DNA from: an uncultured Thiothrix sp.
GTDB taxonomy: Bacteria; Pseudomonadota; Gammaproteobacteria; Poriferisulfidales; GCA-002705445
DNA length: 64,000 bases
Direction of reading: 5' to 3'
Assembly (NCBI GenBank): GCA_902559815.1
Contig: CACEJE010000005.1
Coordinates: 2,170-66,169, forward strand
Shown: positions 25,172 to 61,047 of the stretch, in pieces
Layout of the letters: each line of letters opens with the position of its first letter
Numbering within the stretch: position 1 is the first letter of the stretch
Translations under genes and position numbers: made by a program
Notes under the pieces: generated by a model
Database searches by the model: none
Told to the model about the DNA's origin: nothing
The model's input: only the letters and a program-made list of their open reading frames with translations

Positions 25172-26179
25172 ATGAAAAACGATTCGTACAAATTATGTGT
25201 AGCGCCTATGATGGGTCATACAGACCTGCATTTCAGATATTTGCTTAGATTAATTTCAAAGAAAACTATGTTATATACAGAAATGGTCGCATCAAATTCA
25301 ATTTTACATAACAAATCTAAAAAACTAAACAAACTAGAACATATGAATGATAATCCAGTAGGGTTTCAATTAGGTGGTGATAATCCAGAAGATTTGGCTA
25401 AATGCGCAAAAATAATAGAGGATTATAATTATGACGAGGTTAATTTAAATATTGGTTGTCCTAGTAAAAGAGCACAATCTGGTAATTTCGGCGCATGTTT
25501 ATTTTCTCAACCAGAACTTGTTGCAAAATGCGCTGAAGCAATCAAAAATATATCAGATTTACCTGTAACAGTTAAAACTAGGCTTGGTATAGACAATTAT
25601 GATGATATTAATTATTTATCAGACTTTATTAATACTGTTTCTAAAAAGGGTGTCACAACTTTTCATTTGCACGCAAGAAAGGCTATATTAAAAAAAGGTG
25701 TAAATCCTAGAAAAAATAGGAGTGTTCTTCCAATTAATTATAGAAGGGTATATGAAATTAAAAAACAGTTCCCAAATCTAAAAATTATTATAAATGGTGA
25801 AATTCAAAACCCAATTGATGTAATAAATCACTTAAAATATGTTGATGGAGTTATGATAGGTAGGGCTGTTTGCAATAATCCCTTCTTATTAAATGAAATC
25901 GATGTGTTATTAGAAAACGAAAAATTTATAGATAAGGATATAATATTAAAAGAATACTTTGAATATATAATAAAAAACTTTAATAATAATGTAAAAATTA
26001 CTGATTTTACTAAACATTTATCAAGTATTTTTAAAGGCTATATTGGCTCAAAACATACAAGGGCATATATGTGTCACGAATTAAATTATGAAAAAAAACC
26101 AATTAAAAAACTAGAAGAATTACTATTTAAGGAGGACTTATGGAGAAATGGGCAAGATTCGCGATCAGCGGTGATATAA
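25172..26179 (+). CDS. dusA: tRNA-dihydrouridine synthase A
   Basis: Carries CVAPMMGHTDLHFR and TIM-barrel Dus motifs. Confidence 0.85.
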   Translation: MKNDSYKLCVAPMMGHTDLHFRYLLRLISKKTMLYTEMVASNSILHNKSKKLNKLEHMNDNPVGFQLGGDNPEDLAKCAKIIEDYNYDEVNLNIGCPSKRAQSGNFGACLFSQPELVAKCAEAIKNISDLPVTVKTRLGIDNYDDINYLSDFINTVSKKGVTTFHLHARKAILKKGVNPRKNRSVLPINYRRVYEIKKQFPNLKIIINGEIQNPIDVINHLKYVDGVMIGRAVCNNPFLLNEIDVLLENEKFIDKDIILKEYFEYIIKNFNNNVKITDFTKHLSSIFKGYIGSKHTRAYMCHELNYEKKPIKKLEELLFKEDLWRNGQDSRSAVI

Positions 26180-26919
26180 AATTTGGAAAAATTTCTAATA
26201 ATGGCGAAGATATAATAATTTATGAGGGAGACCTATTTAACAATCCTTTAAAAACAAATGATTCGGTGTCAATTGACTCCGTATCATTACTATCTCCTTG
26301 TTCTCCATCAAAAATGATTGCCTTATGGAATAACTATAAAGCATTAGCTGATGAAAAATCTCTCAGCTATCCAGAAACACCACTTTATATCTTTAAATCC
26401 CCAACTTCATTTGCAGGCCCAAATGACCATATTGATCACCCAAAAAATTATGATGGCGACGTATTTTTTGAGGGCGAATTAGGCATTGTTATTGGTAAAA
26501 CTATCAAAGATCTCGATAATATTAATGACTCTAGAAATGCTATATTTGGATTTACTTGTATCAATGATGTTACTGCTTTTGGATTATTAAAAAATGATCC
26601 AAATTTCGATCAATGGACAAGATGCAAGGGGTTCGATAATTTTGGCGTTTTCGGGCCGTATATAGCTACAGGCATAGATGAAAAAAAATTGTTTGTAAAA
26701 ACAATTATTGATGATAATGAAGAGAAACAAAATTATCCTGTAAGCGATATGATGTTTTCAGCTGAAGAAATTGTTATGTACTTGTCCCAGAACATGACTT
26801 TATATGCTGGTGATATTATTTGTGTTGGAACGTCTCAAGGCCTAGGGCCAATGAAGAAGGGATGTAAAGTATCTGTTCATATTGATCCTATAGGCGTTCT
26901 TGATAATACTTATGGTTAA
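26140..26919 (+). CDS. Fumarylacetoacetate hydrolase family protein
   Basis: FAH fold motifs. A strong AAGGAGG SD precedes the ATG at 26140, and the gene overlaps the dusA 3' end. Confidence 0.75.
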   Translation: MEKWARFAISGDIKFGKISNNGEDIIIYEGDLFNNPLKTNDSVSIDSVSLLSPCSPSKMIALWNNYKALADEKSLSYPETPLYIFKSPTSFAGPNDHIDHPKNYDGDVFFEGELGIVIGKTIKDLDNINDSRNAIFGFTCINDVTAFGLLKNDPNFDQWTRCKGFDNFGVFGPYIATGIDEKKLFVKTIIDDNEEKQNYPVSDMMFSAEEIVMYLSQNMTLYAGDIICVGTSQGLGPMKKGCKVSVHIDPIGVLDNTYG

Positions 26920-26969
26920 TATATATAATTTAACATAATAATGATTATGCGAAGTCTTAAGGATAAGCA

Positions 26970-28226
26970 ATGAAAAGGATAGCTATAATAGGATCAGGAA
27001 TATCCGGCTTATATGCCTCCTATCTTCTCTATAAAGACTACAACATAACTATTTATGAAAAAGAACAATATCTAGGTGGTCATACTAGAACATTATCAAT
27101 AGACTACGAGAAAGGTATTAAATTTAACGTTGATACAGGATTTATAGTATTTAACAAACAGAACTACCCTAACTTCTCAAAATTGCTTAATGAGTTAAAT
27201 GTAGACTGTGGAAAAAGCGATATGTCCTTTGCTATAACCAGTAACAGACACGAAGATCCAGAAATCAAATATTCAAATATTAGTAGTTTTTTTGTTAATA
27301 AAAAAAATATTTTGAGCTATAAACACTATAACTTGCTATATAATATAAATAAATTCAACTATTTATCTTATAAATCTATAAATAATATTAATAAAAATAT
27401 AAGAAATATAACTTTAGGCAAATTTTTAAAGGACAATAATTTTAATAATTTCTTTATAGAGAATTATATAGTGCCAATGGGTAGCTCAATCTGGAGTTGC
27501 AAACCTTCTCAAATACTCCAGTTTCCCTTCTTATCATATGCAAGATTTATGAATAATCACGGCCTTTTAAGTATTAACAATCAACCTCAATGGCTTTATA
27601 TTAAAAATGGCAGTAAAACCTATGTAAGAAGACTTGTAGAGCATATCGATGCTAATATTAGGTTGAATTCTGAGGTAAAAGAGGTGGTTAAGACCAATAA
27701 TGGTATAAAAATAATAACAGTAGATAGTGCTGATGAATATGACTACGTATTTTTTTGCAATCATCCTAATGAAGTGACAAATATAGGTAAAAACCTATCA
27801 AACCACCAAGCCGATGTCTTAAAAGACATAAAATACTCAAAAAACGAGGTTGTTTTACATAAAGATAGCTCAATAATGCCAAGAAATTACAAATGTTGGG
27901 CAAGTTGGGTATATAAAAAAACAAAAAATAACCAACCAATTTTATCATATTGGATGAATTCACTCCAAGATATAGATACAAAGTACCCTATTTTTGTCTC
28001 ATTAAATCCAGGAGATCAAATTAAAGAAGAAAAAGTTTTTAATAGGCACGTCTTAGAACACCCTATTTTTGATATAACTGCAAGAAATGCTCAAAATTTA
28101 ATACCACTAATTCAAGGAGAAAATAAATCTTTTTTTTGTGGGGCATATAACAAGTATGGATTCCACGAAGATGGAGTGGTATCTTCAATTAAAGCAGTTG
28201 AAAAATTAAAAAGTATTGATTTATAA
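26970..28226 (+). CDS. FAD-dependent oxidoreductase (amine oxidase family; UfaD-like)
   Basis: N-terminal GSGISGL dinucleotide-binding motif. It is first gene of a four-gene operon. Confidence 0.7.
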   Translation: MKRIAIIGSGISGLYASYLLYKDYNITIYEKEQYLGGHTRTLSIDYEKGIKFNVDTGFIVFNKQNYPNFSKLLNELNVDCGKSDMSFAITSNRHEDPEIKYSNISSFFVNKKNILSYKHYNLLYNINKFNYLSYKSINNINKNIRNITLGKFLKDNNFNNFFIENYIVPMGSSIWSCKPSQILQFPFLSYARFMNNHGLLSINNQPQWLYIKNGSKTYVRRLVEHIDANIRLNSEVKEVVKTNNGIKIITVDSADEYDYVFFCNHPNEVTNIGKNLSNHQADVLKDIKYSKNEVVLHKDSSIMPRNYKCWASWVYKKTKNNQPILSYWMNSLQDIDTKYPIFVSLNPGDQIKEEKVFNRHVLEHPIFDITARNAQNLIPLIQGENKSFFCGAYNKYGFHEDGVVSSIKAVEKLKSIDL

Positions 28227-28229
28227 TAA

Positions 28230-28958
28230 ATGAAATTTGTAAAAGCCATAGTATTTCATAAAAGAAATTGGCCAAAAGCCAACGAATTTTTATATAAATG
28301 TAATTATATCAGCATAAACTTTCCAATTAAAAATAAAAAAACAAATTTTTTTAGCTTAAATAAGTTTAATATTTTGTCTGTATATGAGCAAGATTATGCT
28401 AATGGGAATAACGATTTATTCATGTGGTGCAGCGATCTATTAAAAAATAGATATAATACAAAAATAGACAAATTAGAGTTAATAACCATGCCCAAGATCT
28501 TAGGATATGCTTTTAACCCAGTATCATTTATGTTTTGCTACTCAAAAGAAAAAATTGTTTGCACAATACTAAAGGTGAATAATACGTTTTCGGAAAATCA
28601 TTATTATATAAATCATACTTCAGAATCTGTACAAAACTATAACATTGAAAAACTTTTTCATGTTTCCCCTTTTCTACCTAGAGAAGGAAATTATAAAATA
28701 AAATATAATAATAGTAAGAATAGTATCAATTTTAATATAGATTACTATAATGATGATAATAAAAACATATTAGAAACCTATATAAAGGGAAATAAAACAA
28801 TAATTAAAAATAATTTTACCGTTTTAAAATATGCATTTACTTCGTTATATTTAATAACCAGAGTTATATATTTAATTCACTTACAGGCTGTAAAGTTATT
28901 CTTTAAAAAAATAAAATTTTATAAAAAACCTGAGCAAAATATTAATAAAATAACTTAA
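28230..28958 (+). CDS. DUF1365 family protein (UfaO-like)
   Basis: Size and position match DUF1365 in amine-oxidase/CFA-synthase clusters. The DUF1365 assignment is recalled from memory. Confidence 0.55.
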   Translation: MKFVKAIVFHKRNWPKANEFLYKCNYISINFPIKNKKTNFFSLNKFNILSVYEQDYANGNNDLFMWCSDLLKNRYNTKIDKLELITMPKILGYAFNPVSFMFCYSKEKIVCTILKVNNTFSENHYYINHTSESVQNYNIEKLFHVSPFLPREGNYKIKYNNSKNSINFNIDYYNDDNKNILETYIKGNKTIIKNNFTVLKYAFTSLYLITRVIYLIHLQAVKLFFKKIKFYKKPEQNINKIT

Positions 28959-28959
28959 T

Positions 28960-30129
28960 ATGAAATATTTAGAACAATTAAAAATAAACTTATTTATATC
29001 TACTTTAAGAAAATGTGATAAAGGTTCAATTAAAATAATTGATCCTGATAATAAAGTATTCGAAATAAATAAAACGTCTGAGATAATAGCCGACATAAAA
29101 ATAAATGATTGGTCTATAGTAAGCAATATGATTAAAAACGGAGATGTTGGTTTTGCGTCAGATTACAGAGATGGAAAATGGACTTCTTCAAATCTAAAAA
29201 ATCTTTTTACCTTTGCAATAATAAATGACAAAACATTATCAAAACTTCTATTTGGAAAACTTATTACAAGATTTTTTTCAAATATTAAGTATATTTATAA
29301 TAAAAATACTATTAAAGGTAGCAAAAAAAATATTGAAGCTCATTATGATTTAGGAAATAGCTTTTATAAAATATGGCTTGATGAATCATTAACATATTCT
29401 TCAGCTCTATTTTTGAAAGACAACAATACTCTTTATGATGCGCAGATTAATAAGTACAACCGTATCCGAGACATTTTAAAAACTTCAAATACTAATAATT
29501 TACTTGAGATTGGTACTGGCTGGGGTGGATTTTTAATGCAATCAAGAGATGATTTTAATCAATTGGATAGTATTACAATATCAAAAAGACAATACAAATA
29601 TGCTAGTGATTTACATAAAAATAATTCAAATATTAATGTAATTTACGATGACTATAGAAATATTGTAAAAAAATACAACTCGATTGTATCAATAGAAATG
29701 TTTGAGGCTGTAGGACAAGAATATTGGAATACATATTTTCAAAAAATTTATAATTTATTATCAAAAAACGGAAAAGCTGTTATACAAACTATCACTATTG
29801 ACGATAAGCTTTTTGACACCTATAAAAATAGCACAGACGCAATAAGAACATTTATTTTTCCGGGAGGTATGCTGCCCTCACCTAGTATATTTATGAAATA
29901 TGCAAAAAAAAATAGTTTTAATGTTTTAGATTCTTTTTCCTTCGGAGAATCATACTCGAAGACTTTAGATTTATGGAATGATAGTTTTAGAAAAAATATA
30001 AAAGAAGTAGAAAAATTAAATTTTGATAAAAAATTTATTAAAATTTGGGAATATTATTTAACCTCATGTTCATCAAGTTTTATTAACGAAAGAACAAATG
30101 TTTATCAATTTACACTCCAGAAAAATTAA
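28960..30129 (+). CDS. Cyclopropane-fatty-acyl-phospholipid synthase family SAM-dependent methyltransferase
   Basis: SAM motif LEIGTGWGG, with the C-terminal region typical of the CFA/mycolic acid synthase family. Confidence 0.8.
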   Translation: MKYLEQLKINLFISTLRKCDKGSIKIIDPDNKVFEINKTSEIIADIKINDWSIVSNMIKNGDVGFASDYRDGKWTSSNLKNLFTFAIINDKTLSKLLFGKLITRFFSNIKYIYNKNTIKGSKKNIEAHYDLGNSFYKIWLDESLTYSSALFLKDNNTLYDAQINKYNRIRDILKTSNTNNLLEIGTGWGGFLMQSRDDFNQLDSITISKRQYKYASDLHKNNSNINVIYDDYRNIVKKYNSIVSIEMFEAVGQEYWNTYFQKIYNLLSKNGKAVIQTITIDDKLFDTYKNSTDAIRTFIFPGGMLPSPSIFMKYAKKNSFNVLDSFSFGESYSKTLDLWNDSFRKNIKEVEKLNFDKKFIKIWEYYLTSCSSSFINERTNVYQFTLQKN

Positions 30130-30131
30130 TA

Positions 30132-30872
30132 ATGAAAAAATATTGGATTATTGGATCTAGCTCAGGCATTGGAAGAGAACTAGCTAAAAAACTTGATGCT
30201 AAAGGATATGAATTAATACTATCCTCTAGAAATGAAGAAAAACTTAATGAGCTTAATAATAGTCTTATTAATAATCATGAGATAATTCCGTTAGACTTAT
30301 CGAATAAAAGCCAATGCATTAATGTTTCTAAAAATATTATTAAAAAAGAAATGGACTCATTGCATATAATCTATATGTCGGCCACATATAGTCCAGATAA
30401 TTCCTCAGACTATGAAAATGTAATAAATGTTAATATTTTAGGACTACTGCACATACTTTCTGTCGCTAAAGAATTTTTAAAAAATACAAACTCTACCAGC
30501 CAACTAATTATTTGTTCTAGTCTAGTAGCCTATAAGGGTTTGCCATATAGCCAACCCTACTCTATGACTAAAGCAGCACTTTATAATTTCGCTTCCTCAC
30601 TTCATATTGAGCTAAAAGATATTGTTGATGTTAAAGTTATTACTCCGGGATTTGTAAAAACACCATTAACAGATAAAAATACTTTCCCTATGCCGCTAAT
30701 AATTAGCGCAAGTTCTGCTGCAAGTATTATTTCAAAGGGGTTAAACTCAAATAGATTTGAGATTAGTTTTCCAATTCCGATGTATTTAATTATGAAGGGA
30801 TTACAAACACTGCCAAATTTTATAAGTAATTATATATCCTCGTTAGTAAAGAAAGGAACAGATAAAATTTAA
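30132..30872 (+). CDS. Short-chain dehydrogenase/reductase
   Basis: GSSSGIG cofactor motif and a YSMTK catalytic region. Confidence 0.8.
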   Translation: MKKYWIIGSSSGIGRELAKKLDAKGYELILSSRNEEKLNELNNSLINNHEIIPLDLSNKSQCINVSKNIIKKEMDSLHIIYMSATYSPDNSSDYENVINVNILGLLHILSVAKEFLKNTNSTSQLIICSSLVAYKGLPYSQPYSMTKAALYNFASSLHIELKDIVDVKVITPGFVKTPLTDKNTFPMPLIISASSAASIISKGLNSNRFEISFPIPMYLIMKGLQTLPNFISNYISSLVKKGTDKI

Positions 30873-32291: not shown

Positions 32292-32777
32292 TCACTCTAT
32301 AAATTTGTTATTACTAAATATTCCTTCGTTAACCAGCCCATTTTTAAAGATATATTTTCCTTTTCCGTTTCTTTTGCCTTTTCTCCATTGGCCTTCATAA
32401 ATATCCCCATTTGGAAAATTATATTTCCCAAATCCGTGTTTTTTCCCATTTTTAAAAGCCCCCTCATAAATTGCTCCGTGAACCCAGCAATAAAACATAC
32501 CTTCGCCAGATTCCTTGCCATTTGCAAATTCTCCTACATAGGTAGCTCCATCTTTATAAGTATATGTACCTTTTCCGTGAGGTAATCCATTCTGAAACTG
32601 CCCAACATAAGCTTCACCATTAGTAGCTATTGAGCCAATGCAATTTGTCCAATATAAACTATCATTACCCTTACATTTCTCTTGATCAGCAGAAAAAACA
32701 CTATTATTCGCTATCAAAATAACAAAAGTTAAAAATGAACTAAATTTTAAGGTTTTTAAACGCATAATAAAATTCAA
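32292..32777 (-). CDS. Secreted MORN-repeat protein
   Basis: Signal peptide plus tandem YxGxxxxGxxxGxG MORN repeats. Confidence 0.7.
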   Translation of the reverse strand: MNFIMRLKTLKFSSFLTFVILIANNSVFSADQEKCKGNDSLYWTNCIGSIATNGEAYVGQFQNGLPHGKGTYTYKDGATYVGEFANGKESGEGMFYCWVHGAIYEGAFKNGKKHGFGKYNFPNGDIYEGQWRKGKRNGKGKYIFKNGLVNEGIFSNNKFIE

Positions 32778-35869: not shown

Positions 35870-36394
35870 TTAGAATCCTTGGAAAGGATGGTCTGTAGCA
35901 TCTTTTTTAGCTAACATATCGTCAACAGAAGGTGTGCCTTTAACAGCAGCTTCTATAGCGCCTTTAGTAGCTTTATAGTTATTTTCATAAATAGCTTCGT
36001 CACTATTTGCTTCCCAATGGATAAATACGCCAACACATATGTAAAGATCGTCAGCTTCACCCTTTGGAATAACACCTGACTCAACGCTATCAGCAACAGC
36101 CATAGCTACTGCTTTCTGAGCAGGACCAAACATTTGAACAGCTTGCTTAGCACCTTTAATTGTAACTTTGTTAAACATCATAGTATTTGGTTTACAAACT
36201 AAGTTTGGGCCAACTACTGCTAATAAAGATGTAAAACCATCTTTGTTATTACAAAGACCATTACAAAATGCTGTTTCTACTGCTGAGCCTCTTGGACCGA
36301 TTAATAAATCGATATGAGCAATCTCTGCCATAGTTCCTGTTGGGTCGTTATCATTTACTAGACATTCCCCCACTAAAACTTTATTTATTGCCAT
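35870..36394 (-). CDS. fae: Formaldehyde-activating enzyme
   Basis: 174 aa, collinear with Methylobacterium Fae: [48 protein letters not shown] and VGVFIHWEA. Confidence 0.9.
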
Positions 36395-36471
36395 GATATA
36401 ACTCCTATTATTATAAATTATTGTAAAAAGTAGTATTCAATACTGAATTCCATTGAATAACTAAGTTTCAA

Positions 36472-37317
36472 TTATAAACCCAAGCGGTTGAAAAATACAC
36501 TAGCCACTACAACGTCAGCCGTTGTTCCAGGATTTAACCCTTGTATCTTAAGCTCAGAATCCAGTAATAACAACTTTTTATTTAATATTTTTGGGTTTTT
36601 TAGCTCACAATATTCATTTGCAAGCGATTTTACTTGTTCAGAGACGTTTTTTGCCTTCATAACACCATATTTTCTTGCAATCAGACTATCTGGCCTTTTT
36701 GACAGAAGACTTAAAAATGTTGCAGTTGTAGCAGACTCATCATTATTCATTTTATTAAAGCATATTCTCCAAAATGGAGATAAATTATTGATAATATTGT
36801 CAAAAAAACAATAATACTCGTTAGCAATATCATCGTAAGAACTTGCGTATTTCATAGCTTCGTAAAGTTTAAAATTACAATTGCCAGACTTTTTAATATC
36901 ATATTCGTCTTTTTCTCCCATTCCCCCAGCATTTGCTATATTAATTGCTTCATATATTTTTTTTGTTTGCTTATGATCAATATCTAGAATGGTTTTCTTT
37001 AAATTTTCTCGTGAAAATCTATGTTTCTCATCAAGATACAAACTTTGTACAATAGGGGTGCAGAGTAAAATAATACCTAGATTAGTGTTGCATCCAACCA
37101 CATCCACTGAAGATTTAACGCTTTCATATATCTTAGTGCCAATATCCATACCTTTTTCGCAAATAATGTCAGAGCATGCCATAGAACTTTGAAGGAAGTC
37201 TTTGTGCGTCATATTATAGCCAGGATTATTATATGAAACGTTACCTGGTTTTATTGAGAAAACATCAAGTTTGCAAGAATATTCAAATGCCATTTTAACT
37301 TGGGTCTCAGTTATCAA
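36472..37317 (-). CDS. Triphosphoribosyl-dephospho-CoA synthase (CitG)-like protein (orf7 of methylotroph H4MPT islands)
   Basis: LNPGTTAD motif and about 280 aa, embedded in the fae/mch cluster. Confidence 0.55.
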   Translation of the reverse strand: MITETQVKMAFEYSCKLDVFSIKPGNVSYNNPGYNMTHKDFLQSSMACSDIICEKGMDIGTKIYESVKSSVDVVGCNTNLGIILLCTPIVQSLYLDEKHRFSRENLKKTILDIDHKQTKKIYEAINIANAGGMGEKDEYDIKKSGNCNFKLYEAMKYASSYDDIANEYYCFFDNIINNLSPFWRICFNKMNNDESATTATFLSLLSKRPDSLIARKYGVMKAKNVSEQVKSLANEYCELKNPKILNKKLLLLDSELKIQGLNPGTTADVVVASVFFNRLGL

Positions 37318-38198
37318 TTTTTCTCCTTACAGATACGTAAAAAATTATTAATTATTTCGTCAGCAATAATCCTATCATTGTGAACTGACTGCAAACCTTT
37401 CCAAGCAGGAATACTATTTACTTCCGTTACCATATAGCCATTATCACCTAACATAATATCAACGCCTGAGTAATCCATATTTAGAGCATTAGAGGCCTTC
37501 AAAGCAATTTCTACCATTTCTCTTGAAGGCTTAAATGATTTACAAGAAGCTCCATTAGCGATATTGTTTATCCAAGTTTTTCCTTCGCGAACCATCGAAG
37601 CTATAACTTCGTTTTTTATAACAAATAATCTCCAGTCAATAAATTTACTCTCAGGATGATTTAAGTATTCTTGCAAATAATAAACATTATTTAAATTTTC
37701 ATAATCAGGATGAGAATTATTTTTATCCAAGATCTCCAATCCTTTGCCTTGGGAACCAAAGATAGGTTTAGAAACACATTTATTTTCAAAAAATTCTTTT
37801 TTAAATTTATTTAGATCTTTGATGTTACTTGTAATGTATGTTTTTGGCGTTGGAATATTACTCGCGCTCAATATACTTGATGTTCTTATTTTATCAACAC
37901 TTTTTTCAATGCATACTGTATTGTTATAAACACAGACATTATAAAGCTCTAAATAATGTAAAATATCTAAATGAAAGATAACTTCTTCGAGAGTACCGCC
38001 TGGTATGCCTCTTACAAAAGCACCTTCAATATCCTTTAAAAAATACTCTTTTGAGTCTATTATAATTTTAGGAATATCTTCAAGAACTAGTGATGAATTA
38101 TTGATTTTTGCAGTTATTACTTTTTTTTTATTTTTTTCAAAAGATTTTATTAATTGACTAGTATGCCATCCATCGTCTTCGGTAAAAATTAAATACAT
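37314..38198 (-). CDS. ATP-grasp RimK-like ligase (orf5/MptN-like, H4MPT glutamylation candidate)
   Basis: ATP-grasp motifs (KPIFGSQGKG, MVTEVNSIP) with 4-nt overlaps to its neighbours. Confidence 0.6.
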   Translation of the reverse strand: MYLIFTEDDGWHTSQLIKSFEKNKKKVITAKINNSSLVLEDIPKIIIDSKEYFLKDIEGAFVRGIPGGTLEEVIFHLDILHYLELYNVCVYNNTVCIEKSVDKIRTSSILSASNIPTPKTYITSNIKDLNKFKKEFFENKCVSKPIFGSQGKGLEILDKNNSHPDYENLNNVYYLQEYLNHPESKFIDWRLFVIKNEVIASMVREGKTWINNIANGASCKSFKPSREMVEIALKASNALNMDYSGVDIMLGDNGYMVTEVNSIPAWKGLQSVHNDRIIADEIINNFLRICKEKN

Positions 38199-38199
38199 T

Positions 38200-39162
38200 T
38201 TATATCCCGAAAGACTTTTTCATTAATTCAGAGTCGATATCACCACTTGTAAAAGTATTTCCAGTTTTCATATTTGATATTATAACTTTACTAGGGCTAA
38301 AAAGATTTCCATCTATTTTAAAAAAATCATATTCATAATCTTTAAAAATATCTGCAAAAGGCTTACCGTAATCATTTGATGTAGAGCTCGGCATTTTATT
38401 ACATAGATCTTTTGCCATATCGTCAGATGTATTTACGAATAGTTGGGTAACTCCTGCAAAAATTATTGCGTCATTTGTTCTGCCCATTGCAGTTAAGAAT
38501 TCTGGCGATGTTGGTGGTATTGGGGCGCTTCCAAAGCCCTCTATAATTTCGTTCATCGGAAATTTAAGTTCGTGTGCTTTATGTAGGGCTACTTCTAAAA
38601 CTCTTGAGACAACTTGTAAATTACCGGCGATACTAGATGTTGGGGTTAATATTATAGTTATATTTTCTGCTTTAACACCTGTGTCTTTTTCAATTTTTTC
38701 AACAATATCTTTTGGTGGAAAACAATCTACTTCCATTACGATACAAGTTTTATCGTTTTTATCTGAATAGTTAATATCTTTAAATAAAGCCTCTTTTAAA
38801 GCTAAAGCTCTACCTGGGCCAGAACCTAATGCGTTAAATTTTACACCCTCCTCCTTAGAAGATAAGCTCCATCCGGCATATTGAGATCCTAAGCAAGCAA
38901 TTACGGGGTCATTAGAATTTACGTGAACTGTAAGAGGCCATTCAGGTGCTTGGAAAGTATTTAAAATATGTACTCTACCTAGGCCACCTAGACATATTTC
39001 ACTAATTATTCTACCGGCCTCAATATTGCCAAGTGCATTTATTCCGGCGTCAATAATAGTTACGTTTTTATGTCCTTTAGAAACATCAACCCTATAATAT
39101 GACTTATTAAGAATTAAATCATCAACCAAGGTTTGAGCTTTTTTATTCACACTAATCATCAA
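38200..39162 (-). CDS. mch: Methenyl-tetrahydromethanopterin cyclohydrolase
   Basis: 320 aa with IIDAGINALGNIEAGRIISEICLGGLG, closely matching the Mch N-terminal signature. Confidence 0.85.
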   Translation of the reverse strand: MMISVNKKAQTLVDDLILNKSYYRVDVSKGHKNVTIIDAGINALGNIEAGRIISEICLGGLGRVHILNTFQAPEWPLTVHVNSNDPVIACLGSQYAGWSLSSKEEGVKFNALGSGPGRALALKEALFKDINYSDKNDKTCIVMEVDCFPPKDIVEKIEKDTGVKAENITIILTPTSSIAGNLQVVSRVLEVALHKAHELKFPMNEIIEGFGSAPIPPTSPEFLTAMGRTNDAIIFAGVTQLFVNTSDDMAKDLCNKMPSSTSNDYGKPFADIFKDYEYDFFKIDGNLFSPSKVIISNMKTGNTFTSGDIDSELMKKSFGI

Positions 39163-40313
39163 ATTATCTCTGTATTATTAAGTTCATTTTTTATTAATGA
39201 TATATTATCTGATAACAATTTATCAGCTTTTTTTTCATCATATGATTTGACACGTATTGTACATATAGGATCACCAGCTTCAATAAAGCAATTTGTTTTT
39301 GGCACATTAGATACAAAATCATATTTTAATAAGTCAAAAGTATATTTAAAATCTTCTTTAGCAAATATTGTTTCAAATGCATAGGATGAATTCTCTTCAT
39401 TGACAATATCTGGCATTTTGCCATTAATAATACTATCAATATGAGCGTTAACATAGCCGAGCTTGAAATAATCATCATACATAAAACAGGTTTGCGTTAA
39501 TCTTGGGTTTATTTCAAGAAAATAAATACTACTACCTTTAATAACGAAATCAATACCATTAATTCCAACTAAATCAAAATTATTAACAAAAAAATTAATT
39601 ATATTTTTTAATAATTCAATATAAGGAGGTTCTAGTTTTATATTTGATATGGCTCCAGAAAAACAATAATTTGTATTTTTTGTTTTTTTATTAAATATTT
39701 TATTAATACCAATTAATTTATAATCTTTTTTTTTATTAACAATAAAAAGTATTGAGTGAACATTTCCAGTAATAAACTCTTGAATATATTCATTGTCAGC
39801 TAAGATATAGTCTTTTGTATAATCTTTAATTCCAAATCCACCAGATAGATCTTTATTTTTAATTAGCTTTTTTTCTTTATTTAGAATTTCTAAATTATAA
39901 TCTTTTGGAACTTTAATTCCACTTTTATATAATTGATTAAATAATATTTTACTATATTTTGTTTCAGCAAATATATCTTGTTTGTTATTTGCTAAATAAC
40001 CATATTTGTTTAGATTTTCATCATAATCCCTTTTAGTATCAAAACCTGATGCGACGATTATTATAGTATCTTCTTTTTTTAAATTTAGTTTTTTTATTAT
40101 TTCAATAACATCGTCATTTACAAATCCAAAAGAGTTCTTATTTAAATAGCACTCTCCTTTTAAGTCGTCATCATTAAATGAGTCAATATTGATTACTCTT
40201 TTATTTAATTTAATAAGTGATTTACTGTGCTCAACTACTGAATTACCAATTATTATTATATTATTTTGATGATACATACTCTCTTGCAAGCTCAAGTGCA
40301 TCATGAAAATCAA
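39159..40313 (-). CDS. ATP-grasp family protein (orf17-like, H4MPT-associated)
   Basis: ATP-grasp-like C-terminal half, conserved in position between mtd and mch. The start may be an internal Met. Confidence 0.45.
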   Translation of the reverse strand: MIFMMHLSLQESMYHQNNIIIIGNSVVEHSKSLIKLNKRVINIDSFNDDDLKGECYLNKNSFGFVNDDVIEIIKKLNLKKEDTIIIVASGFDTKRDYDENLNKYGYLANNKQDIFAETKYSKILFNQLYKSGIKVPKDYNLEILNKEKKLIKNKDLSGGFGIKDYTKDYILADNEYIQEFITGNVHSILFIVNKKKDYKLIGINKIFNKKTKNTNYCFSGAISNIKLEPPYIELLKNIINFFVNNFDLVGINGIDFVIKGSSIYFLEINPRLTQTCFMYDDYFKLGYVNAHIDSIINGKMPDIVNEENSSYAFETIFAKEDFKYTFDLLKYDFVSNVPKTNCFIEAGDPICTIRVKSYDEKKADKLLSDNISLIKNELNNTEII

Positions 40314-42200: not shown

Positions 42201-45200
42201 TTATTTTAGATGCATTCTAGCATTATAGAAAAATTTCGACCAAGGAGATATTATTTCCTCATCATTTGTCGGAAATTGTTTTATATTCATCAACCTTTCA
42301 GGATGAGGCATCATAAGAGTAACGTTACCAGATAGTGAAGATACCCCAGCAATACCTTTATATGACCCATTTGGATTATATGGATATAACTCGGTACGAT
42401 TGTCACGATCACTTAAATAACTTATACAAATCTGCTGGTTACTTTCTAGTTTTTTATAATCTTCATCATTAAGGAAAGCTCTACCCTCACCATGGGATAT
42501 AACTATAGGTATTTTAGAGTCTTCCATTCCTGAAAGGAAGATGGAGTTTGATTTCTCAATATTAACCATAACTATTCTTGACTCAAACCTCTCACTTGTA
42601 TTTTGTAAAAAAAGTGGCCAGTGATCAGATCCTGGAATTATAGTTTTTAAGTTCGAAAGAGTTTGACATCCGTTACATATGCCAAGAGAAAACTTATCCA
42701 TATTATCAAAATAGTTAGAAAAATTATTTTGTAAAATTTCATTATGTAAAATTTTATTTGCCCATCCTCGTCCAGCGCCTAAAACATCACCATAAGAAAA
42801 GCCTCCACAGAAAACTATACCTTGAAATTTTTCTAGATAATTCTCTTTTGCAATTAACGAGTTCATTGTTACGTCTATTGCATCAAATCCGTACATACTA
42901 AAAGCATTTGCCATTTCATAATGCCCATTAATACCTTGTTCTCTTAGAATTCCAACTTTTGGTTTTGTTTTGTTTATGAAAAAATTTTTCTGTATATCAG
43001 AATCTGAGAATTTCTTATCAATATAAAGGCCTTTATTTTCATATTTTCCTATAAAGTCATATTCACACTTAGCGGTTTTTGAATTATCTCTAATATTTTG
43101 TATCTCATAACTAGTTCTATGCCAAGTTTTATGAAGAGTTTCTAGTGAGTTGTTATAAATTAGATTTTTTTTGTTAAAAATATTTATTTCATATGAAGAA
43201 TTAATATTTGCGATGACATAATTTTCGACATTAATTCCGTAATAAGCATCCTGAACTAAAGATAAAAATTTATTAGGAATTTGCATTACTACTCCAAGTT
43301 CCTCATTAAACATAAATTCATTCAGCTTTGAAATATTTTTGTCATAAAGAATATCTAAGCCAACATGTCCTGCAAATGCTGATTCCAACAATGTTACAAT
43401 TAGCCCTCCGTCAGATTTATCATGGTATGATAATATTTTATTATTTTTCATTAATTCTTGAGTAACATTAAAAAAATTTTTAAATTTTTGGATATCCTCA
43501 ACTTTCGGGCATTTTGAATCATTTGTTTGTAAAACCTGTGATAATGCAGACCCCCCTGTTCTAATATTGCCGTTAGAAAGATCAATAAAAATAATTGAAG
43601 TATCTTTTTTATTTACAAACATTGGCTTAACAATATTCTGTAAGTTATCAATATTTGAAAATGCACTTATTATTAAAGTATTTGGTGATTTTACACTTAT
43701 ATCTTTTTGTTTTTCAGACCAAGACATTTTCATTGACAAAGAGTCTTTTCCAACTGGTATAGATATTCCTAATTTATTACATATATTTGATGTAACTGAT
43801 TCAGCAGTTTTGAAAAGCTGATATTTGTCAAAGTCACTGTCAAAACTTGACATCCAATTTGCTGATAGAGCAATTTTAGCAATATTTTCTATTGGCGCTG
43901 AACATATATTTAGTAGAGCTTCGCAAACTGCCAGCTCCCCTGAGGCAACTGGATTATAAACTGCGATAGAAGATTTTTCCCCTAATGACATAACTTCACC
44001 TGAATTAAAAGAAAAGTCATTTGAAGTTACTGCGCAGTCAGCAATTGGCACTTGCCAAGGGCCAATAAATTGATCTTGAACAGTTAAACCACCAACGGTT
44101 CTGTCACCAATTGTTATTAAAAACTGTTTAGATGCTACAGCTGGCAAAGACAATACTTTTGTTAAACAATCGTCAAATTTATAATTACTGTAATTATAGC
44201 CAATCTCTTCAATAATGCTGGAAGTAGTTTCAATTTGCTGCTTTCCCTTTTCCCCAAAAAGTATATTCATAGGAAGATCAATAAATGATTTCTTTTTATC
44301 TTTTAATACAAATCTTTTTTCATTAGTTGCGGTTCCAATTACTGAAAATGGACAATTTTCTTTAAGGCAAGTTTTTTCAAATATATTTAAATCAGATTTC
44401 TTAATAGCTAAAACATAACGTTCTTGAGATTCATTACACCATATTTCCAATGGATTTAAGCTTTTGTCAGCGCAAGGAATTTTATCAATATCAATAATTG
44501 CACCTTTATTACTATCATTCACAAGTTCTGGAACTGCATTAGATAAGCCACCAGCCCCAACATCATGAATTGAAATTATTATATTTTTCAATAGGTTAGA
44601 GATCTTATCTATAACTTCTTGACACCTTCTTTGCATTTCAGCATTTTCTCTTTGAACAGAAGCGAAATCTAGATCTTCATTTTCTCTAGAAGAATGCTTA
44701 GATGAAGCAGCTCCACCACCAAGTCCAACAAGCATTGACGGTCCTCCAAGAACAACAATCAAATCAGAATCTTCAATATCCATTTTTTTATAATTTGAAT
44801 GATCTATTGATCCAAAGCCACCAGCAATCATTATAGGTTTGTGGTATCCATAATATGAGTTTTCATCAATTTTTTGCTCAAACGTTCTAAAATATCCACT
44901 TAAACAAGGCCTACCAAACTCGTTATTGTATGAAGATGATCCTAGGGGGCCTTCAATCATAATATCTAACGCTGAAGCAATTCTATCAGGGTATGATAAG
45001 CTAATATTTTCTTCCCAAGACTGAATAAAGTTTGGAATATTCAAATTTGACACATTAAAACCACATAGACCTGCTTTAGTTTTAGACCCTCTGCCAGTTG
45101 CGGCCTCATCTCTTATTTCTCCGCCTGAACCTGTTGCAGCACCTGAATAAGGCGAGATTGCTGTTGGGTGATTATGGGTTTCGACCTTAATTACACTATG

Positions 45201-46043
45201 GGTATCTATATCCTTATAAACATAATAACCATCTTTATCTACAATTAATTTTTTTGTTTTAAATGAACTAATTACAGCAGAATTATCAGAATATGCTTTA
45301 ATTATATGTTTAGATTTTTCAGGCTCAGTGGACCTAATAAATTGAAACAAAGTTTTTTCTTGATCTGCACTATCAATAATCCACGAAGAATTAAATATTT
45401 TATGTCTGCAATGCTCAGAATTTACTTGCGCAAACATCATTAGCTCTACATCAGTAGGCTTTCTATTTAAAGTAATATAATTACGATTTAGATAATTTAT
45501 TTCATCATTTGACAAAGCTAAACCAAGAGCTTTATTTGATTGTTCTATATAAGATAGTATATCACCTTCAATTCTTATTTTTTCCCTTGGCTCTATAGAT
45601 GTAAAATTATAATCTTTGATATCAAAAAAAATTGTTTCTGTCATTTTATCGAAAAATTCTACATAAAAATCTTCGTTGTTAATGATATTTTTATCAATAT
45701 TATCATTAAAAATATATAATTTGGCTTGCTCGATAGTTTTAAGCTTTTTTAAACCACTTGCATAAAAAATATCTCTAGCTTTTGACCCCCAAGAAGATTC
45801 AACACCCACTCTTGGTGTTACAAGAAAGTAATTAGAAGTACTTATATATTTGGGCAGATCATTTGACAGAAGTAATTTTTTAGCAAGATTTTGTTCTTCG
45901 GTGTTAAAACTTGATTCTAAATCTAAAAAATATACATAATACATTGAAAATAATGAAGAAATATTGAATTTTTTTGAGATTTTATTGTAAATCTTTTGAT
46001 TTAGCTGAGTATTTGAAATCTCATTTTCACACAATATATGCAT
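42201..46043 (-). CDS. purL: Phosphoribosylformylglycinamidine synthase, single-chain large form
   Basis: 1280 aa with FGAM synthase AIRS domains (GAATGSGGEIRDE) and a C-terminal glutaminase domain (GICNGCQ). Confidence 0.95.
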   Translation of the reverse strand: MHILCENEISNTQLNQKIYNKISKKFNISSLFSMYYVYFLDLESSFNTEEQNLAKKLLLSNDLPKYISTSNYFLVTPRVGVESSWGSKARDIFYASGLKKLKTIEQAKLYIFNDNIDKNIINNEDFYVEFFDKMTETIFFDIKDYNFTSIEPREKIRIEGDILSYIEQSNKALGLALSNDEINYLNRNYITLNRKPTDVELMMFAQVNSEHCRHKIFNSSWIIDSADQEKTLFQFIRSTEPEKSKHIIKAYSDNSAVISSFKTKKLIVDKDGYYVYKDIDTHSVIKVETHNHPTAISPYSGAATGSGGEIRDEAATGRGSKTKAGLCGFNVSNLNIPNFIQSWEENISLSYPDRIASALDIMIEGPLGSSSYNNEFGRPCLSGYFRTFEQKIDENSYYGYHKPIMIAGGFGSIDHSNYKKMDIEDSDLIVVLGGPSMLVGLGGGAASSKHSSRENEDLDFASVQRENAEMQRRCQEVIDKISNLLKNIIISIHDVGAGGLSNAVPELVNDSNKGAIIDIDKIPCADKSLNPLEIWCNESQERYVLAIKKSDLNIFEKTCLKENCPFSVIGTATNEKRFVLKDKKKSFIDLPMNILFGEKGKQQIETTSSIIEEIGYNYSNYKFDDCLTKVLSLPAVASKQFLITIGDRTVGGLTVQDQFIGPWQVPIADCAVTSNDFSFNSGEVMSLGEKSSIAVYNPVASGELAVCEALLNICSAPIENIAKIALSANWMSSFDSDFDKYQLFKTAESVTSNICNKLGISIPVGKDSLSMKMSWSEKQKDISVKSPNTLIISAFSNIDNLQNIVKPMFVNKKDTSIIFIDLSNGNIRTGGSALSQVLQTNDSKCPKVEDIQKFKNFFNVTQELMKNNKILSYHDKSDGGLIVTLLESAFAGHVGLDILYDKNISKLNEFMFNEELGVVMQIPNKFLSLVQDAYYGINVENYVIANINSSYEINIFNKKNLIYNNSLETLHKTWHRTSYEIQNIRDNSKTAKCEYDFIGKYENKGLYIDKKFSDSDIQKNFFINKTKPKVGILREQGINGHYEMANAFSMYGFDAIDVTMNSLIAKENYLEKFQGIVFCGGFSYGDVLGAGRGWANKILHNEILQNNFSNYFDNMDKFSLGICNGCQTLSNLKTIIPGSDHWPLFLQNTSERFESRIVMVNIEKSNSIFLSGMEDSKIPIVISHGEGRAFLNDEDYKKLESNQQICISYLSDRDNRTELYPYNPNGSYKGIAGVSSLSGNVTLMMPHPERLMNIKQFPTNDEEIISPWSKFFYNARMHLK

Positions 46044-47203: not shown

Positions 47204-47557
47204 GGGGGCGATCTGGATTCGACGTGGATTGCAAAGCCCTAGGTGCATGTCGAGTATATAGCTATTCTCGTTAAAAATGCTATAAACTTATAGTTGCAAA
47301 CGAAGACAACTACGCACTAGCAGCTTAATCCTGCTGGTCATCATTCAGAAACGTGCTTGTGCATTTCAGTTTGGTGTCGCTTAACACAAGATAGTAATTA
47401 TTTTCGCCATTAGAATAATTATGAAACCCAATTGGATAGTGTAACAAAGTGTCTGCTCGTTAACATTAGTTGCATGAAATTTAATAACGAAGCTAAACAT
47501 GTAGTACCGAAGGTAGAGGATTTGCGGACGCGGGTTCAATCCCCGCCGCCTCCACCA
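47204..47557 (+). ncRNA. ssrA: tmRNA (ssrA), standard one-piece form
   Basis: 5' GGGGGCGATCTGGATTCGACG pairs with 3' CGCCTCCACCA, including the G3:U wobble. It has a tRNA-like T-arm GGTTCAATCCCC. The tag reading frame GCA AAC GAA GAC AAC TAC GCA CTA GCA GCT TAA (47296-47328) encodes ANEDNYALAA. Confidence 0.85.
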
Positions 47558-47623: not shown

Positions 47624-48103
47624 TTAATTATCGTTATCAAAGTTTTTAAGATATTTTTTTAAACTGCTTTCTCGTAACTCGTCTGCTGTTCCGTCAAAAA
47701 GTTTACACGTGCTTTTTATCTGAGAGTTTTTATCAGGCGAAAAAGTAATATTCAAATCTTCTGTATCTAAATAGTAATCAAGCTTTGGGACTTCTACGAC
47801 TTTCTTTTTCCAGTTTTTCTCGTTATCATTTTTATTTAACTTATTATATATTTCTAGTTTTTTATCAGCTTTTAAATAAAGGTATCTAGGATTATTTAAA
47901 AAACCATATGTTCCCTCTCGGATTCCGATATCAAAATAAACAAGAAAATAATTAGTAGTTTGGTATCTTTTATTATCTAGAAAATTGTATGTTACAAGTA
48001 AATTATGTTCTTCACAAAATAAATTTATTCCACTCATATTCTTTGAAGCAAACACCTGTGAAGAAAATAAGAACAAACAGATTGTAAGTAACTTGGCTTT
48101 CAT
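47624..48103 (-). CDS. Hypothetical secreted protein
   Basis: Has a signal peptide and low-complexity, Asn/Lys-rich sequence. Confidence 0.35.
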   Translation of the reverse strand: MKAKLLTICLFLFSSQVFASKNMSGINLFCEEHNLLVTYNFLDNKRYQTTNYFLVYFDIGIREGTYGFLNNPRYLYLKADKKLEIYNKLNKNDNEKNWKKKVVEVPKLDYYLDTEDLNITFSPDKNSQIKSTCKLFDGTADELRESSLKKYLKNFDNDN

Positions 48104-48126
48104 TATTTAAATTTATTTAAAAAATT

Positions 48127-48525
48127 TTATTCACATAAATATTTAATTTTGGAAATGAAATATTTCATTGCCATATTGGAAGAAGAAAAAAATCTTGAGT
48201 CTAAGTATTCATCTTTTTCAATATTTTGAATATAAAATTCCCACGTAGCATATTGGGAATCATATTCATCCGGGGAGAAATCTTGCAGTATCAAAACAAA
48301 AACTGTTTTATTGTTTTTTGATAAAAATTTAATAGCACAGCCTTCAATTGAAAAATCACAGTGCTCGATATATGTATTATTTAAAAAAGGTTTTACAGAT
48401 TGATTGAAGTACTCAATTTTTTGAACAAGGTTTTTTTTATACATATTCTGACCTTTTTTTGGTTCAGATGTATATTTTGGCTGTTTTTGTTTATTTTTGT
48501 ATTCTTTAAGGTCCGTTACACTCAC
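48127..48525 (-). CDS. Hypothetical protein
   Basis: 132-aa ORF. Confidence 0.3.
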   Translation of the reverse strand: MSVTDLKEYKNKQKQPKYTSEPKKGQNMYKKNLVQKIEYFNQSVKPFLNNTYIEHCDFSIEGCAIKFLSKNNKTVFVLILQDFSPDEYDSQYATWEFYIQNIEKDEYLDSRFFSSSNMAMKYFISKIKYLCE

Positions 48526-48607
48526 AATAATTCCGAAAGATAAATAAATATTTTAAAATTAAATATATTATAATTAAATAAGCATTTTAATTACAGCTTT
48601 AAAAAAT

Positions 48608-51058: not shown

Positions 51059-51059
51059 T

Positions 51060-51263
51060 CTAAAGTAAGTATAAAATTATTTTAACTAAAGAGTATAATG
51101 ATATTATGAATAAAATTGTTACAATTATTCCAACAATAATAAAATGGTAAGGCTTTCCGTTAGCAAAATCTCTTTTCCTATTTTTGTCCGATTGAATTCC
51201 TATAAAACTTGAAAGAATACTTAAAACTATTGTGAAAAAATTTAATTTATTTTTGTTGCACAT
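51060..51263 (-). CDS. Small membrane protein
   Basis: 67 aa with two TM helices, overlapping the rimI start. Confidence 0.3.
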   Translation of the reverse strand: MCNKNKLNFFTIVLSILSSFIGIQSDKNRKRDFANGKPYHFIIVGIIVTILFIISLYSLVKIILYLL

Positions 51264-51720
51264 ATTTTGCTAGCATTATTGCGTCTTCATATCCATTTAC
51301 AGCTGGATAATAATTTTTTCTTATACCAATTTCATTGTAACCTTCGGAAAGATATAATTTTAATGCTGATTTATTTGACGGCCTACATTCTAAAAAAATT
51401 AATTTGCAATTAATATTTTTTACTTCTTGTTGCAAATAATTTAATAATTGCCTTCCATAACCTAAACTCCTATATTCTTTTTGTATACATAAATTCATTA
51501 TATGGCATTCATCTTGCACTATAGAACTTATAACATAACCAATAAGATTATCATTTATTAACATTACTCTACACAAGTAATTATTACTTACACAATCATA
51601 AAATATATTTTTTGACCAAGGATAACCGTATGATTCCTTTTCGATATTAAATACATCTTCTAAATGCGAAGTATTCATATCCTCGTAATATGGTAAAAAT
51701 GAACTCTGGAGGCTACTCAT
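51247..51720 (-). CDS. rimI: Ribosomal-protein-alanine N-acetyltransferase (GNAT)
   Basis: GNAT motifs (RSLGYGRQLL) at RimI-like size. Confidence 0.75.
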   Translation of the reverse strand: MSSLQSSFLPYYEDMNTSHLEDVFNIEKESYGYPWSKNIFYDCVSNNYLCRVMLINDNLIGYVISSIVQDECHIMNLCIQKEYRSLGYGRQLLNYLQQEVKNINCKLIFLECRPSNKSALKLYLSEGYNEIGIRKNYYPAVNGYEDAIMLAKYVQQK

Positions 51721-52132
51721 AATTTTTAAATTTTAGAAATTCCTCCCATATAGTTTTCTTTGCCTGATTTGTAATTTCATCTAAAGAAAGTAAACTACAA
51801 AATGTAATTTGTTTGCTCGGTGTATTTGCAAAATACTCGATAAGTTCATCATTACAAAATATTAAAAAAAATTCTGAGTTTTTTCTATCATTATTCTCAT
51901 GTACTAATTTTTTTAATTCAGATTCAGTTTTTATTAGAACTTTTATTTTATTATCGTTCTTTTTTACTGCTTTTATGAAATTATCTAAAACAATAAAGTT
52001 TTTCTTTTTTATTGAATCTGATACTGCAATTATTTTGTTTGAAGTTACTTTATCTTTTTTTTTCTTAATCCATATTCCAACATCCAAGTAACCTAACAAT
52101 TTTATTTTCTGCAAATAATTATCTCTATACAT
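51713..52132 (-). CDS. Hypothetical protein; possibly DNA polymerase III psi subunit-like
   Basis: 139 aa immediately upstream of rimI, overlapping it by 8 nt, as holD does in gamma-proteobacteria. There is only a weak N-terminal resemblance (LQKIKLLGYLDVGIW versus the psi LQQLGITQW). Confidence 0.25.
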   Translation of the reverse strand: MYRDNYLQKIKLLGYLDVGIWIKKKKDKVTSNKIIAVSDSIKKKNFIVLDNFIKAVKKNDNKIKVLIKTESELKKLVHENNDRKNSEFFLIFCNDELIEYFANTPSKQITFCSLLSLDEITNQAKKTIWEEFLKFKNYE

Positions 52133-60963: not shown

Positions 60964-61047
60964 AGTTCGCTCCTATTTTTATTTATTTTTTATTCTTTTT
61001 TTATCTAATAATTTTTTTATTTATAGAATCAGATTATTATATTTTTT

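Follow-up and report, generated by a model that had tools for sequence, protein, structure and literature searches.

A four-gene operon in a streamlined marine bacterium that probably encodes methylated furan fatty acid synthesis

The window analyzed here is a stretch of 64,000 nucleotides (64 kb) from an uncultured Thiothrix sp. (assembly GCA_902559815.1, contig CACEJE010000005.1, positions 2,170 to 66,169 of the forward strand), with a GC content of 29%. It contains four genes, all on the plus strand and separated by gaps of 3, 1, and 2 nucleotides, for a flavin adenine dinucleotide (FAD)-dependent oxidoreductase, a DUF1365 protein, an S-adenosylmethionine (SAM)-dependent methyltransferase of the cyclopropane fatty acid (CFA) synthase family, and a short-chain dehydrogenase/reductase (SDR):

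26970-28226, plus strand: ufaD-like gene for a predicted FAD-dependent fatty-acyl desaturase (418 residues; Pfam NAD_binding_8 and Amino_oxidase)
28230-28958, plus strand: ufaO-like gene for a DUF1365 protein, predicted to perform the O2-incorporating, furan-forming step (242 residues; Pfam DUF1365, E 1e-52)
28960-30129, plus strand: ufaM-like gene for a predicted SAM-dependent fatty-acyl methylase (389 residues; CMAS, E 1e-68)
30132-30872, plus strand: cluster-associated SDR gene (246 residues; adh_short, E 3e-28)

The tight packing of these four gene types, first noted in the original prediction, is borne out by the open reading frames (ORFs) and by Pfam alike. No ORF of at least 80 residues was found on the opposite strand inside the four genes, and no terminator-like hairpin was found 3' of the operon. 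The stop codon of the SDR gene shares 4 nucleotides (30869-30872) with that of a convergent rhodanese gene; on the upstream side, dusA and an FAA-hydrolase gene overlap by 40 nucleotides (26140-26179).

On the evidence of homology, this operon probably makes methylated furan fatty acids, a reading to which we assign a probability of about 0.7. The cluster is the known bacterial pathway for these lipids, found in a new host and with a trimmed architecture, and not a novel type of system. In Rhodobacter sphaeroides, UfaM (RSP2144) methylates cis-vaccenate, UfaD (RSP1091) desaturates the product, and UfaO (RSP1090) inserts an oxygen derived from O2; the genes RSP1089, RSP1088, and RSP1087 are dispensable (PMC7380195). 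In Rhodopseudomonas palustris, the adjacent genes RPA2571-2570-2569 are necessary and sufficient for the pathway (PMC7380195). The earlier description of the cluster as UfaD/UfaO/UfaM-type is upheld by full-length homology of the first two proteins to validated UfaD and UfaO and by the position of the methylase within the UfaM clade.

The FAD protein matches validated UfaD of R. sphaeroides with 34% identity over 419 positions (418/431 residues; 291 bits; E 1e-99), and its GxGxxG FAD-binding motif is present as GSGISG at residues 8-13. The nearest solved structure, that of LkcE, reaches just 104 bits, the match to protoporphyrinogen oxidases and carotene desaturases is limited to the N-terminal dinucleotide fold, and NCBIfam models match only weakly. 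Thus, the protein is a full-length UfaD homolog and does not belong among unrelated amine oxidases, a grouping that had been named as grounds for abandoning the prediction. The ratio of nonsynonymous to synonymous substitution rates (dN/dS) for this gene against relatives is 0.15-0.23.

The DUF1365 protein and validated UfaO (RSP1090) align over their full lengths (28% identity over 247 residues, E 3e-44), and PF07103 covers profile positions 3-235 of 235. In an alignment of 121 diverse homologs, all 25 of the family-invariant residues are kept in the window's protein, including H10, R12, Y22, F95-N96-P97, C103, N118-T119-F120, H124, Y126, K141, S146-P147, and Y155; the dN/dS of the gene is 0.13-0.21. 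An AlphaFold model built from the same number of sequences (mbf0271560615; pLDDT 85.9, pTM 0.85) has a beta-barrel and, at the C terminus, a long helix that could sit on the membrane. A comparison of the model with solved structures gave no match at E <= 0.001; the weak top matches were to ligand-binding barrels of the calycin type, binders of haem or lipids (nitrobindin, Rv2717c, CpeS, and lipocalins). In addition, a 2025 preprint lists DUF1365 among families computationally predicted to bind haem. Taken with the invariant His and Cys residues, these modeled resemblances suggest that UfaO might be a barrel oxygenase assisted by haem or a metal, which is a reasonable lead but nothing more.

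For comparison, the R. sphaeroides locus was retrieved as 7.3 kb of a 3.0-Mb contig by a metagenome scan with a 22-mer, confirmed by four primers; the primers were taken from Table S1 of PMC7380195. The ORFs of the retrieved locus bear the primer-derived tags (MPFETSEFAR...ASAAA for RSP1091, ...QDVTR for RSP1090, and (V)SARLL and a length of 401 residues for RSP1089), and ChrR and RpoE lie divergently upstream. RSP1089 is an MFS_2 transporter (E 1.5e-47), annotated elsewhere as a GPH symporter (PMC7074977, Table 1), and the idea that it might be a CFA-like paralog was therefore rejected. It follows that the R. sphaeroides operon lacks a methylase and that there is no dispensable, operon-type CFA paralog. 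The original prediction had equated the gene order in the window with RSP1091-1087, and this holds in part: the UfaD and UfaO homologs stand first and second and an SDR stands last, whereas position 3 in R. sphaeroides is occupied by the MFS/GPH symporter. The five-gene layout of that species (UfaD, UfaO, MFS/GPH symporter, RSP1088, and SDR) is not found in the window, which has neither the MFS gene nor RSP1088; conversely, R. sphaeroides encodes UfaM elsewhere, beside the photolyase gene phrA, and its operon is driven by the divergent rpoE-chrR pair.

The terminal SDR carries the motifs of its family (GSSSGIG, the catalytic Ser, and Y143-x3-K147). The catalytic motifs and a block, PGFVKTPLTDKNTFPMP, recur in SDRs of one sub-family that go with the cluster in Paracoccus, Vibrio, Pseudoalteromonas, and Azospirillum (30-39% identity); the consensus of the block is PGF(V/I)xTPLTxKNxFxMP. 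The position of the gene varies: in Paracoccus it lies downstream after the MFS gene, in Vibrio and Pseudoalteromonas immediately 5' of the FAD gene, and in Azospirillum nearby. Its correspondence to RSP1087 rests on the Paracoccus protein as a proxy (36% identity). The dN/dS of the SDR gene is 0.05-0.13, and the retention of this gene while nearly all else was discarded argues for a role that the R. sphaeroides deletion assay missed. As a matter of speculation, the SDR might supply reductant to UfaO or process oxidized furan lipids.

These properties of the SDR bear on the best-surviving alternative, namely that the cluster modifies membrane lipids but that its end product is not the canonical furan fatty acid 9M5-FuFA. 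The product might instead be methyl-branched or conjugated-diene chains, a shorter furan acid derived from C16:1, or an SDR-modified compound. Selective constraint on the SDR is as strong as on the core enzymes, with which it is found across classes, yet it is dispensable for 9M5-FuFA synthesis in R. sphaeroides, which hints at chemistry outside the model pathway. Identities to the validated enzymes are only 28-34%. On the other hand, the three enzymes that suffice in two model organisms are all present with their family-invariant residues intact, and the operon encodes no extra enzyme type. A non-canonical end product is thus unlikely, although its probability is not negligible.

The gene for the third enzyme is automatically annotated as cfa (K00574), which is probably a mis-annotation. 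The CMAS domain (PF02353) spans residues 121-384 (E 1e-68), and the protein carries the N-terminal extension of phospholipid-acting enzymes, aligning to positions 34-372 of the 383-position Cfa profile. Against the NCBIfam Cfa equivalog model NF008686 (cut-off 400 bits), the window's enzyme scores 218.8 bits; the enzymes linked to DUF1365 in other genomes score 232-285 bits, and E. coli Cfa, included as a control, scores 701.9. Identity to E. coli Cfa is 26-28% (E 1e-37), versus 32-39% (E 1e-67 to 1e-105) to the enzymes encoded directly 3' of DUF1365 on annotated replicons of Paracoccus, Rhizobium tropici, Mesorhizobium, Ralstonia, Azospirillum, Vibrio, and Pseudoalteromonas. The window contains no second CMAS gene. 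The dN/dS of the methylase gene is 0.07-0.21.

Functionally validated sequences for both enzyme types are available from marine Halomonas sp. YLGW01, in which the ufa genes are consecutive and UfaM makes 11-methyloctadec-12-enoate in E. coli, and in which a separate cfa raises cy17:0 and cy19:0 (PMC12089945). Both proteins were rebuilt from DNA in Table S1 that had been damaged by optical character recognition, using a frameshift-aware aligner with 9 repairs for UfaM and 5 for Cfa, and the key motifs are intact in both. A neighbor-joining tree of 21 sequences (389 columns, 300 bootstraps) places the window's enzyme in a clade with 93% bootstrap support, together with five close relatives, eight DUF1365-linked enzymes including the validated Halomonas UfaM, and two stand-alone homologs. 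The two validated Cfas, from Halomonas and E. coli, pair separately at 96%. Accordingly, the CFA-like protein stands apart from bona fide cyclopropane synthases, with which it could have clustered had the earlier assignment been wrong.

The active sites diverge along the same line. At positions 139, 236, 239, 240, 266, 268, 269, 270, and 317 (E. coli Cfa numbering), validated Cfas read C G E H H I G S Y, whereas the validated Halomonas UfaM and the window's enzyme both read S E E A Q I T I Y. This identity at all nine positions holds despite an overall identity of 31% between the two proteins. The resulting signature (S139/E236/A240/Q266/T269/I270) was derived in this analysis and is not taken from a published definition; the solved Cfas 7qos, 6bqc, and 5z9o all keep Gly236, His240, and His266. 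The residues C139, E239, H266, I268, and Y317 form the bicarbonate pocket of E. coli Cfa, and H266 and C139 are ligands of the bicarbonate thought to accept the ring-closing proton. In the window's enzyme, E239, I268, and Y317 are kept, whereas C139 is replaced by Ser and H266 by Gln. Because both of the replaced residues ligate that bicarbonate, the altered pocket is a plausible basis, judged from sequence, for forming a methyl branch instead of a ring.

Two characterized CMAS-family enzymes help to frame this difference. E. coli Cfa shares with the window's enzyme the CMAS fold family, the SAM-dependent attack on a phospholipid cis double bond, and E239/I268/Y317, but the window's enzyme differs by C139S, G236E, H240A, H266Q, G269T, and S270I and falls in another clade. 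The mycobacterial enzyme MmaA4/Hma (PDB 2fk7), also of the CMAS family, forms a methyl branch without ring closure and has Glu236 and Gln266; it differs in acting on mycolic acids, in adding water to give a hydroxyl, in lacking the N-terminal domain, and in keeping His240, and it is distant (E 7e-29).

The alternative that the CMAS protein synthesizes cyclopropane or cyclopropene fatty acids, with the FAD and DUF1365 proteins assisting it or being unrelated, must be weighed against these data. Automated pipelines call the gene cfa/K00574, an older annotation described RSP1091 and RSP1090 as 'cyclopropane/cyclopropene fatty acid synthesis proteins' (PMC7074977), and the pocket residues E239, I268, and Y317 are retained. 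However, the protein falls about 180 bits under the curated Cfa cut-off and into a clade apart from validated Cfas, and its His266-to-Gln change is shared with a validated methylase and with the non-cyclopropanating MmaA4. Moreover, the linked UfaD and UfaO homologs have demonstrated roles as desaturase and oxygenase. A cyclopropane synthase is therefore quite improbable.

Among validated arrangements, the best matches to the window are R. palustris RPA2571-2569 and the Halomonas sp. YLGW01 cluster. In R. palustris CGA009, RPA2571-RPA2570-RPA2569 (ufaD-ufaO-ufaM) are the same three gene types, adjacent and in the same order, a comparison made by gene type and position only. R. palustris additionally has FufM (RPA0924), which makes dimethyl furan fatty acids and has no counterpart in the window, and no SDR is reported as part of its set. 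A genome scan with the RPA2571 5' primer gave six chance loci, none with ufa homologs, and a metagenome scan with the RPA2570 3' primer gave no match; Tardiphaga, a member of the same family, was rejected as a stand-in for RPA2569 on account of having no methylase after ufaO. Linkage of ufaM to ufaO is thus not universal, the methylase lying elsewhere in both R. sphaeroides and Tardiphaga. Halomonas UfaM belongs to the same clade as the window's enzyme, but that genome also encodes a separate true cfa.

The same four gene types are also contiguous in the SDR-FADox-DUF1365-CFA clusters of Vibrio and Pseudoalteromonas, including the V. cholerae VC1122 region, with the SDR first instead of last. 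These clusters sit among genes for ChrR, photolyase, DUF2878, chalcone-isomerase-like, and DUF3833 proteins, none of which accompany the operon in the window, and the V. cholerae 'CFA synthase' VC1122 is induced by blue light via ChrR/sigmaE (PMC5241685). More broadly, these proteins are also encoded side by side in Paracoccus, R. tropici, Mesorhizobium, Ralstonia, Azospirillum, Vibrio, Pseudoalteromonas, and Halomonas. Among the best 35 plasmid or chromid matches to the methyltransferase, 21 occur in records with a listed DUF1365 match, nearly all within about 1 kb; given that only 63 of 72,556 records hold any DUF1365 match, about 0.03 co-occurrences would be expected. The linkage of the cluster proteins is therefore far beyond chance.

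A further gene pair, encoding DUF1295 and a short CMAS protein (about 342-366 residues; distinct pocket with F268 and H270), is found together with the island in many genomes (L010 1735-3567, L011 603-2458, L013 8149-10057, and L022 1214-3066) and is not found in the window. On account of its position and a 4-nucleotide overlap, this pair corresponds to R. palustris RPA0923-RPA0924 (FufM), and its short CMAS enzymes fall outside the UfaM clade.

Within the lineage of the window, synteny of the four genes extends to relatives with as little as 53% protein identity, and one order is conserved in all of them: gltX ... ABC-2 exporter, dusA, FAA hydrolase, the cluster, ... YkuD, holB, PTPS, and Fae/Mch. 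This synteny indicates that the cluster is vertically inherited. The relative at 53% identity (L019) has the order FADox-DUF1365-CMAS-MFS_2-SDR, with an MFS protein homologous to RSP1089; the window's lineage lost the MFS gene cleanly, leaving no remnant in the 2-nucleotide gap at 30130-30131. All four genes are under purifying selection, with dN/dS of 0.05-0.23 as compared with 0.04-0.17 for the neighboring dusA, FAA-hydrolase, and Fae genes. Split gene calls occur in relatives known from long-read metagenome-assembled genomes (L007 8222-9264; L021 6992-8996 and 12248-13076; L019 8261-8997 and 10171-11411), but both the window and L020, a short-read scaffold, have the ORFs unbroken. Because the splits are confined to long-read assemblies and also affect unrelated genes such as YkuD, they probably reflect homopolymer frameshifts arising in assembly and do not mark pseudogenes.

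Three features were noted immediately upstream of the operon:

26900-26929, plus strand: candidate sigma70-type promoter TTGATA-N18-TATAAT (11/12 match), overlapping the end of the upstream FAA-hydrolase gene
26929-26956, plus strand: conserved non-coding block TTTAACATAATAATGATTATGCGAAGTC, with an inverted repeat CATAAT-N4-ATTATG at 26934-26949
26959-26963, plus strand: Shine-Dalgarno-like AAGGA, 6 nucleotides before the ATG, recognized by reading the sequence

The candidate promoter ends 41 nucleotides before the ATG. Its -35 hexamer is not conserved in relatives, and sigma70-like matches are no commoner than in shuffled sequence (36 found versus 46.8 expected). The 28-nucleotide block is conserved at 27/28, 26/27, and 19/23 positions in relatives, and the whole intergenic region is 94, 85, and 66% identical, as compared with 57-75% in most control intergenic regions and with a baseline of 41-47% at four-fold degenerate sites; conservation of the block greatly exceeds both of these references. 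The inverted repeat has no other perfect copy in the window, and relatives retain its arms but differ in its spacer. An RNA hairpin or riboswitch was rejected, given that the block matches no Rfam family and its predicted fold is not significant (z = -0.34). A Fur box was likewise dismissed on inspection, for the half-sites are similar but the 6-4-6 spacing is unsuitable. From its sequence, the block is a candidate promoter-proximal operator, promoter core, or leader.

The original prediction was also correct that no sigmaE/ChrR pair is adjacent to the operon. Searches with R. sphaeroides, Paracoccus, and R. tropici queries found no ChrR or sigma homologs in the 64 kb or in the loci of four relatives, and no homologs of extracytoplasmic function sigma factors, MerR, photolyase, TspO, DUF1295, or lipocalin were found in the window. 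The sigmaE-type promoter TGATC-N18-CGTAT (V. cholerae consensus) did not occur once in the window when spacers of 16-20 nucleotides were allowed, and a TGATCC near the operon was put down to chance, the motif being as frequent as expected (22 observed versus 21.8 expected). The weakest explanation, that the operon is a decaying, non-functional remnant of a photooxidative-stress island stripped of its regulators, MFS gene, photolyase, and TspO, could point to the survival of just 4 of roughly 8-12 typical island genes and to the split gene calls in some relatives, but it is exceedingly improbable given the low dN/dS of all four genes, the ORFs intact in the window and in L020, the probable origin of the splits in assembly errors, and the conservation of the upstream element.

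If the operon functions as its homologs do, it would modify the acyl chains of membrane phospholipids after their synthesis, converting them into methylated furan fatty acids. First, the UfaM-like methylase would move a methyl group from SAM onto a cis-monounsaturated chain (cis-vaccenate in the model organisms), and the allylic methyl-branched trans-olefin 11Me-12t-18:1 would be released without cyclopropane closure. The UfaD-like flavoenzyme would then use O2 to introduce a second, conjugated double bond, giving 11Me-10t,12t-18:2. Finally, the UfaO-like DUF1365 protein would insert one O2-derived oxygen to build 9M5-FuFA's furan ring or that of a chain-length variant. In the membrane of a bacterium of the surface ocean, the resulting lipids would be expected to act as scavengers of singlet oxygen and radicals. 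Expression would proceed without an adjacent ChrR/sigmaE pair, and the palindromic upstream element suggests control by a DNA-binding protein. The analysis shows the order of the genes, their homology and selective constraint, and the clade and residue signatures to which they belong; the catalytic steps, substrate, and physiological role are projected by homology from the R. sphaeroides and R. palustris pathway.

Several points weigh against this assignment. The residue signature rests on one validated UfaM that was rebuilt with 9 frameshift repairs, the methylase tree is a neighbor-joining tree of just 21 sequences, and identities to the validated enzymes are modest, as given above. The usual photooxidative regulators are absent from the 64-kb window. 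The SDR lies outside the demonstrated pathway, its R. sphaeroides counterpart RSP1087 being dispensable for furan fatty acid synthesis (PMC7380195), and the papers searched yielded neither lipid data for this organism nor fatty-acid data that link the cluster to pelagic bacteria.

A more ambitious reading is possible but tentative, and we hold it to be somewhat doubtful as a whole. Under it, an abundant, streamlined pelagic gammaproteobacterial lineage would have cut the widespread photooxidative-stress island down to ufaD-ufaO-ufaM and the SDR, swapped ChrR/sigmaE for a regulator that binds CATAAT-N4-ATTATG, and kept the SDR as a real step in furan-lipid metabolism, such as the supply of reductant to UfaO or the recycling of oxidized furan lipids. 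Were this true, such picoplankton would be bacteria that contribute significantly to the furan fatty acids in marine food webs.

The remainder of the window provides a picture of the host. It encodes a one-piece tmRNA with the tag ANEDNYALAA (47204-47557, plus strand), a single-chain PurL (42201-46043, minus strand), and a BepA homolog (58276-59739, plus strand), which together indicate a proteobacterium of the gamma/beta type and not an alphaproteobacterium; SAR11, which the GC content of 29% had suggested, was rejected on these grounds. The sole organism label among the relatives is 'Gammaproteobacteria bacterium', and a Tara label names the 0.22-1.6 um fraction of a deep chlorophyll maximum. 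Given the low GC content and relatives on contigs of 1.06-1.1 Mb, the host is a streamlined, free-living marine organism of the gammaproteobacterial type.

Other features of the window are recorded here as side observations. At 35870-40313 (minus strand) lie genes for Fae, a CitG-like protein, a RimK-like ATP-grasp protein, methenyl-tetrahydromethanopterin cyclohydrolase (Mch), and a second ATP-grasp protein; this Fae-Mch cluster is a tetrahydromethanopterin-type one-carbon module in a very small, low-GC marine genome, and it is kept in relatives L019-L021. At the window edge (59758-63996, minus strand), genes for an ammonium transporter, an FAD/NAD/4Fe-4S reductase, and a molybdopterin oxidoreductase stand in a row; the last is weakly similar to the assimilatory nitrate reductase NasC, and the row may be a nitrate-assimilation module. 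The stretch of lowest GC content is 48001-52000 (22.6-23%), and an ORF at 48608-51058 (plus strand, 816 residues) has a C-terminal PD-(D/E)XK nuclease as its sole recognizable domain. A small MORN-repeat protein is encoded at 32292-32777 (minus strand; E 1.5e-29); such repeats are known mainly from eukaryotic membrane-associated proteins.

The signature H266Q/C139S/G236E/H240A seems to tell UfaM-type methylases apart from true cyclopropane synthases and could serve to re-annotate cfa genes. If so, many 'cfa' calls, including K00574 assignments in ocean gene catalogs, may be wrong, and in lipidomes 19:1-methyl chains may be mistaken for the isobaric cy19:0. Furan fatty acids are powerful antioxidants of membranes, and how bacteria make them was elucidated only between 2014 and 2020, in two phototrophic Alphaproteobacteria. 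That a surface-ocean bacterium with a minimal genome has the full set of enzymes, all under strong purifying selection, suggests that the pathway repays its cost in sunlit, oxic, nutrient-poor water, and makes picoplankton a possible source of marine furan lipids.

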